From positions 553,985-617,984 of the forward strand of contig NZ_QERF01000001.1 in assembly GCF_003260205.1 (NCBI RefSeq): 64,000 bases of DNA, in the 5' to 3' direction. The DNA comes from Winogradskyella tangerina (lineage in GTDB: Bacteria; Bacteroidota; Bacteroidia; Flavobacteriales; Flavobacteriaceae). Each line of letters starts with the position of its first letter. The stretch's first letter is position 1. Of the stretch, positions 58,073 through 63,839 are shown in pieces. The notes below the pieces were generated by a model. The model saw only the letters and a list, made by a program, of their open reading frames with translations. It was not told the origin of the DNA and did no database searches. The position numbers were made by a program, and so were the translations under genes.

Positions 58073-58465
58073 ATGAAAAAAATAATTTCAATTCTAGTTA
58101 TCGCATTAAGTTTCACTTTAGCGGGTAACGCACAAGACAGCATGAAAAAAGATGCTATGATGAAAGACTCTAAAGCAACTGTGGTGTCTTTAGAACAAAC
58201 AAAAGGGGAGTTTACCCAAAAAACCTTAACCTTAGCTGAAGGCGATTACATTTTCGAAATTGCTAACAATAATGTCGGTCACCAGGTAGGGTTTGTATTG
58301 GCGCCAAAATCTAACCCAGATGCGCATATCAAAACAGCTTATGTTACAAAGGCTGTAGACAACAACTCAAAAGAAAGTACTAATGTTACCACATTGGCCA
58401 AAGGTGAGTATGTGTATTTCTGTCCGTTGAACCCAACACCACAATACACGCTTATCGTAGAGTAG
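58073..58465 (+). CDS. small secreted hypothetical protein
   Basis: It has a signal peptide (ISILVIALSFTLAGNAQ), a Met/Lys-rich linker, and a beta-rich C-terminus. Confidence 0.45.
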   Translation: MKKIISILVIALSFTLAGNAQDSMKKDAMMKDSKATVVSLEQTKGEFTQKTLTLAEGDYIFEIANNNVGHQVGFVLAPKSNPDAHIKTAYVTKAVDNNSKESTNVTTLAKGEYVYFCPLNPTPQYTLIVE

Positions 58466-58485
58466 TTAATTTAAATTTTATAAAC

Positions 58486-58521
58486 GAAAAAGCGCGGCTC
58501 ATCAGAGCCGCGCTTTTTTTA
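58486..58521. terminator. strong bidirectional rho-independent terminator
   Basis: AGCGCGGCTC-atca-GAGCCGCGCT is a 10-bp GC-rich stem flanked by A5 and T7. Confidence 0.8.
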
Positions 58522-58534
58522 TGGGTCTAAGGTT

Positions 58535-58867
58535 CTACTTCCCTAGCATCAACAATTCGTTACAAACGACTTCCGTGGTGTAGCGTTTAATACCGTCTTT
58601 ATCTTCCCAACTGCGTGTGGTTAGTTTGCCTTCAATGGCTACTTCTTTGCCTTTGGTTACAAACTTTTCAATTATTTCTGCTGTTTTGCCCCAAGCTACA
58701 ATATTGTGCCATTGGGTATCTGTTACTTTTTCTCCTTTAGCATTTTTATAGCTTTCATTTGTAGCTATTGAAAACTTGGCGAGGATTTTACCAGATTCGA
58801 GGTTAATGATTTCGGGATCATTTCCGAGGTGACCAATTAACTGTACTTTGTTTCTTAATGTACTCAT
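58535..58867 (-). CDS. ssb: single-stranded DNA-binding protein (short OB-fold SSB)
   Basis: NKVQLIGHLGNDPE...TDWHNIVAWGKTAE...VAIEGKLTTRSWEDKDG forms an SSB OB-fold. It lacks the acidic C-terminal tail. Confidence 0.75.
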   Translation of the reverse strand: MSTLRNKVQLIGHLGNDPEIINLESGKILAKFSIATNESYKNAKGEKVTDTQWHNIVAWGKTAEIIEKFVTKGKEVAIEGKLTTRSWEDKDGIKRYTTEVVCNELLMLGK

Positions 58868-59037
58868 GTGTTTTAAATTTTAGTGATTAAACAGTCAATA
58901 CTATCGTGTAAATGCTAAAGCCATTAGCACAACAACGACGAGACAAAGATGAGATGGCCAACCTTAATTAATCGGTAGTTACCTATTTAAATTCGTTTGT
59001 AAGTATTTGTAGTCGTTTGTAAATAACTATTGCTTTG

Positions 59038-59045
59038 TGGATAGG
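59038..59045. repeat. target-site duplication, left copy (TGGATAGG)
   Basis: It is identical to the 8-mer at 63432-63439 and lies directly outside the terminal inverted repeat. Confidence 0.7.
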
Positions 59046-59233
59046 GGCAGCTATATACAATAAGGGACAAATTAATCTAGTAATTTTACAAAACGAAAAA
59101 TGTCGTTTTTTTTAATGTGAAGTACGCAATTCATCTGACCGTCTTTCCCTTGCCACCGATTCAGCAATTCGAGATTGGGCATCTTGCCTACCATTCAAGG
59201 TATAACCAGACTATTGCAGTCAAAGAGCGTGGA

Positions 59234-59365
59234 CTATTCGTCCTTTTTGTCCTCTTTAGGTTTAGGGACAGATATTTTTAGAACGTCGTCGAGCGTGCCA
59301 TCTATTGACAGTTTTTCCTCGTACTTTTTAGCACGTTCCTTTTTGTTTTTTTCTTTCTTAGCCAT
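59234..59365 (-). CDS. candidate 43-aa Lys/Glu-rich micro-protein (cargo; stop-start coupled TAAATG with the protease gene)
   Basis: MAKKEKNKKERAKKYEEKLSIDGTLDDVLKISVPKPKEDKKDE. Its ATG follows directly after the protease TAA. It is below the ORF-track length cut-off. Confidence 0.3.
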   Translation of the reverse strand: MAKKEKNKKERAKKYEEKLSIDGTLDDVLKISVPKPKEDKKDE

Positions 59366-59791
59366 TTACCATTCAAGGGTTATTTCTTTTTTGACATAAT
59401 CTAAAGTTATCTTGAACTTTTCAAGAAACATATTAGTGCCTAGAATTGGAGGCAAAGAATTAGACATGATAGTATTCCCTACCACTTCTAGAGTTCTTAA
59501 AACCTTTTTTCGAGTACTGTCTAGTATTTCTATTTTAAAAGGATGTACATAAGTATCTATTTCAGTACCAGAAATACCTCTTGTGCCTTTTTCCTTTTTA
59601 CTTTCATTATCCAGTTTATGTCCAACATTCATTGTAATCATACTTGGAAAAGTACAACAATCTGCACCTGTATCTATCATTGCCAAAGTATGAATTGCCT
59701 TATTTGTATTATAATTTATGATTCTTATGGGTATTTTAGGTCTTAAAATACCATTTTCGCCTTTTCGAAATGGATAAGTGTATTTATTCAA
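59366..59791 (-). CDS. retropepsin-like (clan AA) aspartic peptidase domain protein (cargo)
   Basis: It has the MIDTGADCCTF (D-T-G-A) catalytic motif with downstream hydrophobic-Gly (ILGTNMF). It is 141 aa. Confidence 0.55.
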   Translation of the reverse strand: MNKYTYPFRKGENGILRPKIPIRIINYNTNKAIHTLAMIDTGADCCTFPSMITMNVGHKLDNESKKEKGTRGISGTEIDTYVHPFKIEILDSTRKKVLRTLEVVGNTIMSNSLPPILGTNMFLEKFKITLDYVKKEITLEW

Positions 59792-59970
59792 AAGACAAAA
59801 TTATAATCAACATTTGTTTCAAAATCTAGAATAAAGTCCTCTCCAGATTCTTCTGCCTTTTTTAAAACTTCTTCACCATCAAAACTTTCATAAATAACCT
59901 TGTTAGTTTCTATGTTAATAGCTCTAATTGTAATTAAATTTTCTTGTTTAGATTTTTTGTCATTAGACAT
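59788..59970 (-). CDS. small acidic hypothetical protein (cargo; ATGA overlap with the protease gene)
   Basis: It is a 60-aa ORF, translationally coupled to the downstream gene, with a 13-bp perfect palindrome upstream. Confidence 0.35.
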   Translation of the reverse strand: MSNDKKSKQENLITIRAINIETNKVIYESFDGEEVLKKAEESGEDFILDFETNVDYNFVF

Positions 59971-59987
59971 TGCTCTCGGTTTTAAAA

Positions 59988-60022
59988 AGTGTGCAAAAGT
60001 AACTAAGAATATGTTACTTTTG
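59988..60022. promoter_or_regulatory. perfect 13-bp inverted repeat GTGCAAAAGTAAC-N9-GTTACTTTTGCAC (transposase terminator and/or operator of the cargo operon)
   Basis: It lies between the transposase stop (60069) and the start of the 60-aa ORF (59970). On the minus strand it is followed by ACTTTTT. Confidence 0.45.
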
Positions 60023-60068
60023 CACTAAAGTATGTAATTTAATGATAAATACAATCTACTTTAACTTA

Positions 60069-61010
60069 TTAATATACAGTACTTATTAGTTTCTTATAAC
60101 TTAAAGTACTTTCACTATCTACTAAAAACTTTTCAAATCTTTCTTGACTAGATAAACTTCTAGTATTAAATCTAGCTGCAAATTCATCTAGATAACGTTC
60201 TAAATGCTTTTCGCTAACTTGGTGGTAAATTCCATACAAACCACGCTTTAGTACACTCCAAAAGTTCTCAATCGTATTGGTATGGACTTGTCCATCCACA
60301 TAAATATTCAAAGCGTGTTTTACACTTTCATGGGTGTAATACTTTTTTAGATGATTATATACTGGCGCTTCGTCAGAATAAATCGTTGATCCTTGCGGAA
60401 CGTGTCTCGCTATAAATGCTCCCATATTGCGCAACTCCGAATTAGGGACGTGTTTTAAAACTACATTACCGTTTCGCTCAATGATACCAACAACCGTTTT
60501 CTTAGGCGTATAAGGTTTACCCTCATTGGTAAAGTTTTTATCCTCTAATGAACGGCGTTTGTTAATATGCTTATTCTTTTCACGACCACCAATATAGGCT
60601 TCATCAACTTCTACCATTTTATCCTTTCCCAATACCTGTGGTGCTTTGTCCTTTAGCATTTCTCTAATACGGTGCAAAACAAACCAAGCCGTCTTTTGAG
60701 TAATACCTAAATCTAAAGCTAATTGTACCGAACTGATACCCTTTTTATGAGTTGTGGCTAAGAATATAGCTGCAAACCATATTCTTAACGAGATTTTAGA
60801 GCCATGAAATATAGTACCGACCTTTACAGTAAACTTTTTATAACATTCGCTATTGGCGCATTTATGACCCCTATTGGTTTTATATGTACGCTCACTACCA
60901 CAATGAGGGCAAACAGGTGTTCCGTTCCAACGGATCTGCTCGTAATACTCTATGCAAGTGTTTTCGTCCTTAAAGTAATCTAAAAGCTGTGGTAGAGACT
61001 TGAAATTCAT
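60069..61010 (-). CDS. IS1595-family transposase (ISXO2-like DDE)
   Basis: It has an N-terminal zinc ribbon (CPHCGSERTYKT...HKCANSECYKKF) and a DDE_Tnp_IS1595 core (YIGG...IYSDEAPVYN...ENFWS). Confidence 0.9.
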   Translation of the reverse strand: MNFKSLPQLLDYFKDENTCIEYYEQIRWNGTPVCPHCGSERTYKTNRGHKCANSECYKKFTVKVGTIFHGSKISLRIWFAAIFLATTHKKGISSVQLALDLGITQKTAWFVLHRIREMLKDKAPQVLGKDKMVEVDEAYIGGREKNKHINKRRSLEDKNFTNEGKPYTPKKTVVGIIERNGNVVLKHVPNSELRNMGAFIARHVPQGSTIYSDEAPVYNHLKKYYTHESVKHALNIYVDGQVHTNTIENFWSVLKRGLYGIYHQVSEKHLERYLDEFAARFNTRSLSSQERFEKFLVDSESTLSYKKLISTVY

Positions 61011-61078
61011 TTTATTTTAGGTGTTTGTTGGGACAAATATAATGAAAATATATTAATTGTTGATATTATGTTCACAAA

Positions 61079-61162
61079 AAGTTTGGTAATTTTTCCAAAC
61101 TTTTATGTAAAAGCCTATTTTTGAGTAGTATAATTAAAATTAAGTTTGGTAATTTTTCCAAA
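61079..61162. promoter_or_regulatory. divergent promoter/operator region with two exact 21-bp direct repeats AAGTTTGGTAATTTTTCCAAA (61079-61099 and 61142-61162)
   Basis: Each repeat has inverted ends TTTGG...CCAAA. The two copies are 63 bp apart (six helical turns). The second abuts the ATG of the XRE/ImmA gene. Confidence 0.55.
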
Positions 61163-61164
61163 AC

Positions 61165-62427
61165 ATGAATAGTAACAATAAACATAAAGATGTAGATAAA
61201 TTGCTTAGAGGTCTATTTAATGAGAACACTAAGCTTCAGAACTTTGAACTGATAGAGTTATTTGAACAGCGATTGGCCGATCTTTCAATAACGAAAAATC
61301 AAGCTTGTATTATTTTGGATATTGAACACAAAACTTTGGATAGTGTATTAGATGGTACTTCAAAAAAAATAGATTTTCTAGGTATTTTAAAGCTTTCTTA
61401 CTTTTTAGATATACCTCATAATGATTTTATCGATAAGTACTTCGATTTAACTTTTAAAAACAACAATGAAGATATTGAAATAGTTAAAAAAAGAAGTTTC
61501 ATAGTTAAGAACTTTGATTTACCCCAGCTTAAAAAGTCTGGCTTTATTGACAGCATTAATGATTTTGATGATATAGAGATTAGGCTAAATCAATTTTTTG
61601 GCTATGATACGATATTCGAATTTGGTAAGAATAAATTTACGGCGGCACTAAGTTCAGGTTCAAGAAAAACCAATCAGAAAAGTTTTGACTTTTGGTCAGA
61701 AGCAGTATGTAAGAGTATAGATAAAACTCCTAATCCCCATAAGTATGATAGAGAAGGCTTAATTGAGTTTTTCCCAAGAATAAGAGCGTATTGCTTAGAC
61801 GTTGAAAAAGGATTGATAGCGGTAGCCCAAAAGCTTTTTACTTTGGGTGTCACTTTGATTATAGTTCCTAAATACAATACTGATTTACATTTAAGGGGAG
61901 CAACATTCGTAAGAAATGGCAAGCCCTGTATTGCACTGACAAAATACACTCAATTTTACCCTACCATTTGGTTTACCTTAATACATGAGTGCTACCATGT
62001 TTTGTATGATTGGGAAGTTATAAAAAAAGAGACTTTTCACTTTAGCATTGAGGTAGAAAACCAAGAGGATCAGAATAATTCCAATATTATTAATGGTTAT
62101 GAGATAAATGAAAGTGAAGCTAATTATTTTGCTCGTGAATATTTGTTTTCTAATGAAAAACTAAAATCTGTAACTCCTCTTATAAATGATAAATTGTTCA
62201 TTGAGAGATTTGCTAAAGAAAACCATGTACACCCAAGCTTTATATACAGCTTTTATTTATGGAATAATGGAAGTAAATCAAACTATGGTAAATTCAATAA
62301 GTATTTTCCAAAGGAAAGCTATGATAAACTTCTAAAGAATTTTAGTGTTTACGAGGAATCAAAACACTTACCTGTTAATGAACTTACAAAGAATAGAAAT
62401 AACAACCTTAATTATAATACCCTTTAG
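61165..62427 (+). CDS. XRE-type HTH fused to an ImmA/IrrE-family HEXXH metallopeptidase domain (cargo regulator)
   Basis: The N-terminal HTH is LSITKNQACIILDIEHKTLDSVLDG. Mid-protein is HECYH (HEXXH) within TLIHECYHVLYDWE. It is 420 aa. Confidence 0.6.
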   Translation: MNSNNKHKDVDKLLRGLFNENTKLQNFELIELFEQRLADLSITKNQACIILDIEHKTLDSVLDGTSKKIDFLGILKLSYFLDIPHNDFIDKYFDLTFKNNNEDIEIVKKRSFIVKNFDLPQLKKSGFIDSINDFDDIEIRLNQFFGYDTIFEFGKNKFTAALSSGSRKTNQKSFDFWSEAVCKSIDKTPNPHKYDREGLIEFFPRIRAYCLDVEKGLIAVAQKLFTLGVTLIIVPKYNTDLHLRGATFVRNGKPCIALTKYTQFYPTIWFTLIHECYHVLYDWEVIKKETFHFSIEVENQEDQNNSNIINGYEINESEANYFAREYLFSNEKLKSVTPLINDKLFIERFAKENHVHPSFIYSFYLWNNGSKSNYGKFNKYFPKESYDKLLKNFSVYEESKHLPVNELTKNRNNNLNYNTL

Positions 62428-62432
62428 CACTT

Positions 62433-63020
62433 ATGAAAGAGAAAAAATTAAAGAATGTAATCCAAGCAAACACAAAAGAGTTAAAGGAATTACAAAGAAA
62501 AGAGGAGATACAGACCCTCTTATTCAGAACGGAATCACTACGTCCCCAAAAGGACTATGATAAGGAGTTAGAAAAAATCCAACTCAGAAACGGAACAACA
62601 ACTTCCCTTAAAGAGATTAAAGATTTAATAAATGATATTCCTAGGGAACACGAATCTATGTTCCCTAACGAAAAACCGTTTTTCTCTTTAATGTTTTATT
62701 TAAACGAGTGGAACGATTTAAACCCTCATAACTTTATAAAACCACCAATCTGTGCTAAATGGATAAAACAATATATCTATGGGCGGTTTGATAGAGAAGT
62801 TTTACCTACTTTGTTGAAAAAGGAAAATCCAATAATAGCGGGTTATATTAAGAAATATAAATTGTTCCAGTTTTTAAATGATGATGGGCTGATGTTGCTA
62901 GAGGGTTATATTAATGATGCAATAGAGGTAATGAAAATATCTAAAAATTGGTATGATTTTGAATTAAAGTACACCAAGTTATACACTTTATCGGTACAAT
63001 TGAAGCTTAAACTGAAATAG
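62433..63020 (+). CDS. hypothetical protein (cargo, downstream of XRE/ImmA)
   Basis: It is 195 aa and Lys-rich with no recognisable motif. It lies 6 nt after the upstream stop. Confidence 0.4.
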   Translation: MKEKKLKNVIQANTKELKELQRKEEIQTLLFRTESLRPQKDYDKELEKIQLRNGTTTSLKEIKDLINDIPREHESMFPNEKPFFSLMFYLNEWNDLNPHNFIKPPICAKWIKQYIYGRFDREVLPTLLKKENPIIAGYIKKYKLFQFLNDDGLMLLEGYINDAIEVMKISKNWYDFELKYTKLYTLSVQLKLKLK

Positions 63021-63431
63021 TATGAAAACAATGATGTTTGTAATATAAATATTACTTTGATATACATCTTATCGAATAATTACGAACTTAAATAGATGGT
63101 AATGATATTAAGTAATATCTTTAAGTAGAAAACAAAAAAGCACCCAATAGGATGCTTAAAATACTCTCTCTGAGATAGACTGGAAAAGTGCAAATACACC
63201 GTTCAAAAGTGTGCCGTCTCTCATTAGGATAGGGCTTTTGACTTACAGTCGGAAAACGTCGGTACTCGCAATACTGACGTTTTTTCATTTATAAAAGTAG
63301 TCAAAATGACTACTATCGGCAAATATTTTCGATAAAATGATATCAATTTTAAGGGTTTGTAATATTATTCTTAAAATATTGATGCCATTTTTAGTTTTGA
63401 ACTATCTTGTCCCTTATTGTATATAGCTGCC

Positions 63432-63439
63432 TGGATAGG
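63432..63439. repeat. target-site duplication, right copy (TGGATAGG)
   Basis: It is identical to the 8-mer at 59038-59045. IS1595-family elements make 8-bp TSDs. Confidence 0.7.
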
Positions 63440-63518: not shown

Positions 63519-63839
63519 TTGATTGATAAGAGTACAATTCTGGAAGTTTTCGAGGACATCCGCCAAAATGGGGAATGGGATATTAATCGGGGATTACTTT
63601 ATGGTTATTTTTTTCTAGACGAAAATCGCCAAAAACTTAAAACTGTTGGGGATAACCTCAAAAAGAAAGGTTACACTTTTGTTGACATTTTCAAAGCGGA
63701 ATCGGAAGAAAATGAAAAAGCGGAAATGTACTATTTGCATATTGAAAAAGTTGAAATTCACTCAGTTGATTCCCTATTTGAAAGGAACTTAGAATTCTAC
63801 AACGTCGCTGAAAAATTTGGAATAAATTCATACGACTGA
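63519..63839 (+). CDS. RraB-like (regulator of ribonuclease activity B family) small protein
   Basis: It has tandem alpha/beta repeats ending with the ...EKFGINSYD motif (compare the RraB C-terminal G-x-YDGW). Confidence 0.45.
   Translation: MIDKSTILEVFEDIRQNGEWDINRGLLYGYFFLDENRQKLKTVGDNLKKKGYTFVDIFKAESEENEKAEMYYLHIEKVEIHSVDSLFERNLEFYNVAEKFGINSYD

Follow-up and report, generated by a model that had tools for sequence, protein, structure and literature searches.

The DNA analyzed here (the window) is a 64,000-nt stretch of the Winogradskyella tangerina contig NZ_QERF01000001.1, and its subject is an insertion sequence (IS) near the right-hand end, at positions 59038 to 63439. The element is bounded by perfect terminal inverted repeats (IRs) and a target site duplication (TSD), and between these it encodes a DDE transposase, a lysine-rich protein of 43 amino acids (aa), several proteins unrelated to transposition, and a structured RNA (Table 1). 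To its left lies a host gene (ssb) for a short single-stranded DNA-binding protein, preceded by a triple repeat motif, and the right-hand host neighbor is an RraB-like gene (63519–63839).

Structure of the element and its core genes

The sequence GGCAGCTATATACAATAAGGGACAA at 59046–59070 is the exact reverse complement of 63407–63431 (25 of 25 nt, with 4,336 nt between the arms), and the element measures 4,386 bp between its outer IR ends (4,402 bp when both duplications are counted). The transposase-distal repeat is termed IRR, being the right end when the transposase is read on the plus strand, and the transposase-proximal repeat IRL. With up to three mismatches allowed, the IR 25-mer matches just two places in the window, which are the two ends, and none of 100 dinucleotide-preserving shuffles contained any match; by this search, the window holds one element. 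The octamer TGGATAGG also occurs exactly twice in the window, each copy touching an IR tip. Its count alone is not significant (two or more matches in 28 of 100 shuffles), and the target duplication is accepted because TGGATAGG abuts both IR tips exactly. The bases outside the octamers are unlike (CTTTG before the left copy, ATGATT after the right), and the duplication is therefore not part of a longer native repeat. An earlier note on this DNA, made from the sequence alone, had described both the perfect repeats, at the same coordinates, and the 8-bp TSD, and had raised the question of a longer native repeat; its reading of the ends stands.

The transposase matches the Pfam families DDE_Tnp_IS1595 (PF12762; 1.7e-39, residues 132–282) and Zn_ribbon_IS1595 (PF12760; 1.1e-9), as well as NCBIfam NF033547 (196.6 bits vs. 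a cut-off of 75), and is 100% identical to a protein annotated in W. tangerina, on one contig. Its catalytic signature, VEVDEAY / IYSDEAP / HTNTIENFWSVLKR, is invariant in an alignment of 18 clade transposases, and fits the pattern D..D..(H.N..ENFWS..K) quoted for ISApl4/IS1016 transposases (PMC12561309). Together with the 25-bp IRs and the 8-bp duplication, these matches confirm the IS1595 family that the earlier note had named. The element ends, GGnnnnTAT, presumably resemble those of the ISNwi1 group, which is a lead rather than an ISfinder subgroup assignment.

When the ORFs of related elements are clustered, only the genes for the transposase and the 43-aa protein are universal, and all others vary. 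The 43-aa cluster (C1) has 15 members, from elements with as little as 45–47% transposase identity, and the protein has no match in any profile library searched (Pfam, PADLOC, phrog, NCBIfam). The invariant core is thus comprised of the IRs, the transposase, and this 43-aa basic protein. Because it is kept as a core gene in 15 elements, the 43-aa ORF is not cargo, and the five cargo ORFs counted by the earlier note become four protein genes. A single IS does enclose genes unrelated to transposition within its IRs, as that note had stated, and the element is an intact, passenger-carrying (transporter) IS, or tIS, of the IS1595 family. Passenger-carrying IS1595 elements are already known, and as first described the element is an ordinary one.

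Table 1. Features of the W. tangerina element and of the adjoining host DNA (positions in the window).
Feature	Position	Strand	Evidence or remarks
110-aa tail-less SSB	58535–58867	-	SSB 2.4e-33; OB fold only, ends ELLMLGK; host gene, constant clade neighbor
Triple TTACAAACGA-like repeat upstream of ssb	58990–59032	-	Native landmark outside the element; first repeat 15 nt from the duplication
TSD copy 1 (TGGATAGG)	59038–59045		ssb side; directly abuts IR
IRR, transposase-distal terminal inverted repeat	59046–59070	+	End always facing the ssb motif
Conserved 43-aa lysine-rich protein	59234–59365	-	K-rich N-terminus, ..KL.I.GTLDDVLKVSVPKPK; tblastn, clustering, alignment
141-aa retropepsin-like (clan AA) protein	59366–59791	-	IDTGAD motif; sub-threshold profiles
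60-aa partner of the retropepsin-like protein	59788–59970	-	
IS1595-family DDE transposase, 313 aa	60069–61010	-	N-terminal zinc ribbon; Pfam, NCBIfam, catalytic signature
Two identical 21-bp palindromic boxes (AAGTTTGGTAATTTTTCCAAA)	61079–61099 and 61142–61162		63-bp spacing; located upstream of the 420-aa gene
420-aa helix-turn-helix (HTH) + M78 metallopeptidase fusion	61165–62427	+	ImmA/IrrE-type, HECYH; Pfam, PADLOC
195-aa P63C-domain protein	62433–63020	+	P63C 3.8e-8; phrog_2384 1.9e-15
Structured non-coding RNA gene, ~165 nt	63128–63291	-	Intrinsic terminator 63138–63157
IRL, transposase-proximal terminal inverted repeat	63407–63431	-	At the cargo end
TSD copy 2 (TGGATAGG)	63432–63439		

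The insertion site upstream of a short ssb gene

A transposase scan of one genome per species returned 44 related loci (loci are designated here by L numbers). An ssb homolog was found by tblastn near the transposase in 18 of these, and in 17 of the 18 it is on the same strand, 0.6–1.9 kb downstream, and a homolog of the 43-aa protein usually intervenes. The ssb-linked loci include Gaetbulibacter, Pontimicrobium, Psychroserpens, Winogradskyella thalassocola, Olleya, Tenacibaculum, and several metagenome-assembled genomes; neither the other ORFs of the window nor the RraB-like neighbor were found in them by tblastn. The IRs of the related elements have the form GGCAYCTATATAC-N6-GGGACAA, and complete elements span 2.7–5.4 kb. 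Perfect 8-bp duplications, each with its own sequence, flank 17 related elements (18 of 23 candidate pairs, the window included).

Across the 44 loci, the motif lies 22–23 nt past the IRR in every element that has an IRR in the locus and a transposase identity of at least 69%. The motif consists of three TTACAAACGA-like repeats, the first usually inside the palindrome TCGTTTACAAACGA, and is located ~150–200 bp upstream of ssb, just upstream of the ssb promoter. Measured from the IRR end, the first TTACAAACGA is 22–23 nt away in 15 elements, and the same geometry, together with ssb, recurs in L165 and L172. Across genera, the flank past the transposase-distal IR aligns in the order duplication, ~15 nt, TTCGTTTACAAACGACTACAAACATTTACAAACGA, TAnnTTTG-like box, leader, ssb start. 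The ssb lies beyond the motif, in the same orientation, in all of these elements except two. In Fulvivirga (L012), ssb is on the other side and points away, so that the element sits between ssb and the motif, and the same geometry to a TTTACAAACGTTTGT palindrome is kept; L011 has the motif but no ssb. Because both loci keep the motif geometry despite a displaced or absent ssb, the landmark is the motif rather than the gene. From these alignments, it is very likely that the clade, unlike ordinary ISs, homes to one chromosomal site, in one orientation, next to the motif upstream of the short ssb. At least 20 independent elements show this placement. The earlier note held that an IR sequence present only once per genome would argue against mobility; since the clade homes to one site, a point absent from that note, and is single-copy for that reason, the test is not applicable here. 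We also considered whether the target mimics the IR (TATACAA vs. TTTACAAAC) and rejected this, as the IR positions concerned make up the variable hexamer, which ssb-targeting elements do not conserve.

Most copies of this native motif are unoccupied among the matches listed from metagenomes, where a scan for TACAAACGACTACAANNNNTTACAA returned at least 120 loci (L045–L164). Among these listed matches, 109 have no nearby IR, 6 are clearly filled, and 2 have degenerate IRs; an ssb of 104–127 aa (most 110–113 aa) ending in ..ELLMLGK lies downstream of the motif in 97 of them, with variable neighbors. In the consensus of 98 distinct empty sites from the same matches, the 8 bp that would be duplicated are a low-information, A-rich stretch, while the motif, with TCGTTTACAAACGA as its first unit, is almost invariant. 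Characterized flavobacterial SSBs have 140–151 aa and end in DLPF (PMC3991886), whereas the protein encoded here has only the OB fold, and the target ssb is therefore a tail-less paralog.

Movement is seen directly in one pair of metagenomic loci. L147 is filled: its element spans 4,063 bp, has the duplication AATATACC, and encodes a transposase 76% identical to that of the window. L162 is the same region, empty, with a single AATATACC and with flanks 99.7% identical to those of L147 over 2,506 bp across the junction. This pair demonstrates movement of the whole unit for a relative, rather than for the window copy itself. Of the earlier note's view that the element is still mobile, the part that concerns the clade is thus supported, and the W. 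tangerina copy, judged by its sequence, may well still be active. The uninterrupted W. tangerina target site would read ...CTTTGTGGATAGGATGATT..., and L076 runs unbroken through the reconstructed junction.

The same site is also used repeatedly. L021 (3711–6904) has three tandem elements with the same TCCCAAAA between them, twice, and at L016 (6628–6685) an IRR, 8 bp, and an IRL follow one another, with TAATTTCA and GAATTTCA as spacers; no transposase is detectable in the upstream unit of L016. Tandem arrays with 8-bp spacers are what is expected from repeated insertion at one fixed point. In plasmid and phage collections, relatives are all below 60% identity (the best listed are 41–44%), and no vector for horizontal spread was identified there.

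Two other histories could place such an element beside ssb. An ordinary IS1595 tIS without target preference might have inserted once, long ago, and been inherited vertically across the Flavobacteriaceae. This would fit the conservation of both transposase and ssb across genera and the one copy per genome, and accessible papers do not generally present IS1595 elements as site-specific. Inheritance would nevertheless leave one shared duplication whose copies have drifted apart, and each genome instead has a different, internally perfect 8 bp; the left flanks are also unlike between genomes. Transposase identity does not follow host relatedness (W. thalassocola 73%, Gaetbulibacter 87%, Seonamhaeicola 89%), about 90% of the metagenome motif sites listed are empty, and L147 and L162 differ by an element within nearly identical flanks. 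Because the duplications differ, identity departs from taxonomy, most sites are empty, and a filled/empty pair exists, we set vertical inheritance aside as extremely improbable.

Alternatively, the element could be an immobile relic, perhaps with a co-opted transposase, or an ssb-linked island spread mainly by homologous recombination. The single copy per genome, the highly conserved neighbor on one side, the lack of close relatives on known plasmids or phages, and mosaic IRs in three loci (L003, L007, and L008) that suggest inter-element recombination are all in keeping with it. Only one flank is conserved, however, and double-crossover transfer is therefore unavailable. Also against it are the intact transposase ORF with its conserved catalytic residues, the perfect duplications that differ in sequence among about 18 elements, the tandem arrays sharing the same 8-bp spacer, and the precise polymorphism at L147 and L162. 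We regard this explanation as improbable, if somewhat less so than vertical inheritance, and retain homing by transposition.

Several further observations concern the ssb locus itself. At many empty sites among the metagenome matches listed, a divergent gene starts just 10–25 bp past the insertion point, commonly encoding a protein of ~115–117 aa that begins MET/NRECLECK.. or MKKQCP... Insertion would split such a gene from the shared intergenic region, and its counterpart in the window is the RraB-like gene. At the other end of ssb, the 3′ end of the gene (58550–58572, encoding VVCNELL) matches the reverse complement of the motif at 58990–59032 (22 nt at 82%, 21 nt at 81%), and the gene is thereby bracketed by inverted motif copies, which may reflect coincidence, regulation, or a trace of cassette mobility. 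In Pontimicrobium aquaticum (L004 10250–13370), and also in L005 (9527–10298), the short ssb is itself fragmented. It is broken up into an N-terminal piece (residues 1–57), a second ssb that is complete (61% identical), a remnant of a C terminus (..KHYVTEVICSELLMLSK), and the C-terminal half of the original gene. Interspersed with these pieces are genes for a Fic/DOC-like protein of 198 aa, an HTH protein of 152 aa, and a protein of 137 aa. The arrangement resembles another, different means of stacking cargo at this gene, each insert arriving with a replacement part of ssb; no recombinase was seen in the fragmented region.

Cargo, its turnover, and a structured RNA

Besides the transposase and the 43-aa core gene, the W. 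tangerina copy carries four protein genes and one RNA gene. The earlier note read part of this cargo as an XRE/ImmA regulator pair; both domain types are present, but they are fused in a single 420-aa protein, and the true partner is the 195-aa P63C-domain protein. The match of the 420-aa protein to Peptidase_M78 (2.2e-4, 21.4 bits) is just below the cut-off of 22, and its homologs carry the source names ImmA/IrrE or HigA. A P63C-domain protein (196–200 aa) always follows the 420-aa homolog, and the pair is kept in L165, L167, and L168. Its contexts there are a tIS at the ssb site (L165, with perfect IRs and the duplication CAACTATA), a Flagellimonas locus without a transposase, and a Pedobacter locus at the margin of a CTnDOT-like conjugative element.

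Boxes of the AAGTTTGGTAATTTTTCCAAA type are also found upstream of the 420-aa homologs in L165, L167, and L168, inside and outside tIS. Because they are kept upstream of the homologous gene in other contexts, these boxes belong to the cargo module, and because they travel with it in all four contexts the module is self-contained. They are probably operators of the HTH domain of the 420-aa protein, in which case the module would be autoregulated; lying in the intergenic region between the transposase and HTH-M78 genes, they could also affect the divergent transposase promoter. The 420-aa protein matches the PADLOC profile PD-Lambda-2_B (2.2e-20, residues 103–391). Components A and C of that system have no match among the element proteins (PADLOC), and the constant partner is instead the P63C-domain protein; the module is therefore related to PD-Lambda-2 rather than an instance of it. 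A literature search on PD-Lambda-2 composition returned nothing relevant.

The remaining two cargo proteins form a translationally coupled pair, in which the stop of the 60-aa gene overlaps the start of the 141-aa gene by 4 nt, and the same overlap occurs in L170/L171. The earlier note spoke of a retropepsin-like protease micro-operon; the retropepsin call draws on a DTGA motif and on profiles that are all under their cut-offs (RVP, E = 0.021, 15.5 vs. 20.7 bits; gag-asp_proteas, 14.6 vs. 28.2; TIGR03698, 26.8 vs. 57.35 bits). The 141-aa protein also matches PADLOC PDC-M08B (3.8e-5), and has just four homologs in the protein collection. Outside tIS, the pair is accompanied by an MmeI-like gene for restriction-modification, by an HNH gene, and by an integrase. 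The cargo modules of the window are therefore also found outside tIS, on an integrative and conjugative element and near a restriction-modification system and an integrase, and they may act in defense or addiction. A cargo protein of 136 aa (cluster C6; L001, L004, and L009) occupies the slot of the retropepsin-like gene and was considered as a homolog of its product; it was rejected, having no DTG motif and no detectable similarity.

Across the clade, the variable genes occupy three slots: one from IRL to the transposase, one from there to the 43-aa gene, and one past that gene. Pfam families in the cargo of relatives include SocA/Panacea antitoxins, MazF/PemK, RelA_SpoT, NYN, Abi_2, and GNAT, along with Schlafen AlbA_2 and HATPase_c_4, an SDH/ClpP-like protease, AAA_14/DUF4143, DUF4760, and several unannotated families. 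Within one element, the agreement of the two IRs usually extends to the variable hexamer that separates GGCAYCTATATAC from GGGACAA. Those of L003, L007, and L008 have unlike hexamers at the two ends, and the transposase-distal end of L008 is of the L010 type; such mosaic IRs suggest recombination between elements, reassorting left and right cargo. One derivative of 2.1 kb (L040 7883–9976) retains the last ~70 transposase codons only, and is flanked by an 18-bp direct repeat (GTCATAATTTTCATTTTT) instead of 8 bp. The junction repeat of L001 also reaches 18 bp (GATGCCTTATAAGGGGCA), because its flanks resemble the IR tips.

Two distant relatives with 47–54% transposase identity, L019 and L020, are inserted in the 8-nt loop of C5-N8-G5 hairpins: CCCCC-TTTGCAAA-GGGGG in L019 (6375–9387), and CCCCCC-TTAACCAA-AGGGGG in L020 (417–3114). 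This suggests that their branch uses a different, structure-type target, and because these relatives use other targets, specificity has changed within the wider group.

The ~165-nt RNA gene was missing from the gene inventory of the earlier note. It lies in the left cargo region of many, though not all, clade elements, in either orientation (also L165 8861–9023, L169 286–451, L147 5941–6103, L009 7515–7677, L163 1770–1929, L015, L024, and L001; weaker in L013, L005, L035, and L003). Its features are a Bacteroidota-type promoter box, a 12-bp hairpin, the invariant core AAAGCCCTATCCTAATGAGAGACGGCACAC, and a terminator; a sigma-70 promoter scan is uninformative for Bacteroidota. Changes on both sides of the hairpin occur at 8 of the 12 pairs, and across 13 sequences 84.9% of cells are paired, compared with 36–46% in slid controls. 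The covariation score is 0.318 (at most 0.124 in controls) and the fold z-score is -3.85. Neither this RNA nor the ssb leader has an Rfam match at E ≤ 1, and a tRNA search found none; weak Rfam matches at 58405–58529 are terminator-like chance matches. A 55-aa ORF at 63121–63288 was rejected as a gene, as it has a stop at codon 10 in L165 and is not conserved. An antisense or guide role for the RNA was rejected for now, the longest complementarity to element or target being 10 nt, which is at chance level; about half of the elements have no RNA yet use the same target site, which also discounts it as a targeting guide.

Proposed mechanism and comparison with known systems

The observed structure and family of the element, its site and orientation specificity, the independent insertions, the insertion polymorphism of a relative, and the turnover of cargo can be drawn together in a mechanism. 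The DDE transposase would act on the 25-bp IRs and make an 8-bp staggered cut in the target, which would give rise to the TGGATAGG duplication. Insertion brings the transposase-distal end to 22–23 nt from the TTACAAACGA-type motif in a single orientation, without conservation of the duplicated 8 bp, and the non-core genes are exchangeable cargo in slots on either side of the transposase. Because the ssb motif, promoter box, and leader are left intact, insertion should be nearly neutral, and near-neutral insertion at one site per genome would account for the single-copy state. The element would thereby work as a safe-harbor transposon, as Tn7 does at attTn7 and the ISAba32 group at xrs/dif, though it is a member of neither and its one transposase is of the IS1595 family.

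We propose, with a probability of roughly 0.55, that these elements are a clade of IS1595 tIS with Tn7-like homing by one transposase and a 43-aa accessory protein, which would recognize the operator-like TTACAAACGA repeat. They would form small, exchangeable islands, sometimes in tandem, that carry toxin-antitoxin or defense modules and an undescribed structured RNA to a single site across Flavobacteriaceae and some other Bacteroidota. The motif may be read directly by the zinc ribbon/HTH of the transposase or by the 43-aa protein, which we prefer to tethering by a host regulator. In the tethering scenario, a host protein that regulates the short ssb would bind the palindromic TCGTTTACAAACGA repeats and hold the transpososome, so that the cut falls at a fixed distance. 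The motif does resemble a transcription factor site, with its palindrome and three helically phased repeats ~10–11 bp apart just upstream of the TAnnTTTG-like promoter box; the cut site is sequence-neutral; and a comparable position, abutting XerCD binding sites, is taken by ISs of the ISAba32 group (bioRxiv 10.1101/2022.12.17.520857). Against this, no such regulator is known or was identified in this analysis, and targeting is kept in Fulvivirga, which belongs to another taxonomic order, and at the motif without ssb, which direct DNA recognition explains more easily. Tethering is therefore possible but appears doubtful.

A number of points weigh against the overall explanation. No dedicated target-selector protein is identified, and the 43-aa protein alone cannot explain the choice of the ssb motif, because it is also encoded in L019–L021, which have other targets. 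This exact locus yielded no empty allele, and L076, its nearest uninterrupted counterpart, is just 77% identical. Cargo function is weakly indicated, since the retropepsin and M78 Pfam matches are below curated cut-offs, and the recurrent cargo families C2–C4 had no annotation in the Pfam search. Related loci were gathered via the transposase or the motif, and clade elements elsewhere on short contigs could be under-sampled. The copy count covers the 64-kb window, and the W. tangerina genome may hold further copies.

Should recognition reside in the zinc ribbon/HTH region of the transposase or in the 43-aa protein, the element would rank among the smallest site-specific DDE integration systems known. 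A one-transposase IS with single-nucleotide site and orientation specificity is a compact natural system for the study of DDE target choice, and may offer a small homing integration tool for Bacteroidota, in which genetic tools are few. The site upstream of the short ssb is a recurrent landing pad in marine flavobacteria with turnover of defense and toxin-antitoxin cargo, which helps to explain and locate accessory-gene hotspots in these ecologically important organisms. The value of the element beyond a routine one thus lies in its homing behavior, its role as a cargo platform, and its associated RNA.

Among described tIS, which are stated to occur in no families other than IS1595 and IS66 (bioRxiv 10.1101/2021.05.26.445724), the closest counterparts are tISCpe8 (Clostridium perfringens) and MTnSag1 (Streptococcus agalactiae), IS1595 tIS that likewise combine a DDE transposase, 25-bp IRs, an 8-bp duplication, and passengers (PMC5704250). 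The described elements carry lincomycin resistance and mobilization functions and reside on plasmids or at various sites, whereas the clade is chromosomal, single-copy, and site- and orientation-specific, with an extra 43-aa gene and regulator, toxin-antitoxin, or defense-type cargo. Site-specific IS1595 elements, ssb-linked ISs, and defense-type cargo in IS1595 tIS have no report in the searchable literature, a search in which ISfinder was not included.

The ISAba32 group (IS1202 family; xrs/dif), whose members abut XerCD binding sites, also has a single DDE transposase; its members insert a short way from a conserved protein-binding site, with both spacing and orientation fixed, and make a small duplication. 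It differs in its unrelated transposase family, in having no cargo, and in its landmark, a recombinase site instead of an operator-like repeat upstream of ssb; its duplication is 5 bp, 5 bp from the site, compared with 8 bp at 15 nt here. Tn7 inserts next to a conserved gene, at a fixed distance from a recognized sequence and in one orientation, and Tn7-like transposons at attTn7 share with the clade this safe-harbor insertion at one site per genome. Tn7-like transposons also have variable, defense-rich cargo, as the clade does (PMC8649781). No TnsA/B/C/D/E, TniQ, or CRISPR module was found among the element proteins with the profile libraries, which show one IS1595 transposase and small ORFs, and unlike Tn7 the clade elements are much smaller (complete ones 2.7–5.4 kb) and duplicate 8 bp rather than 5 bp of their target.

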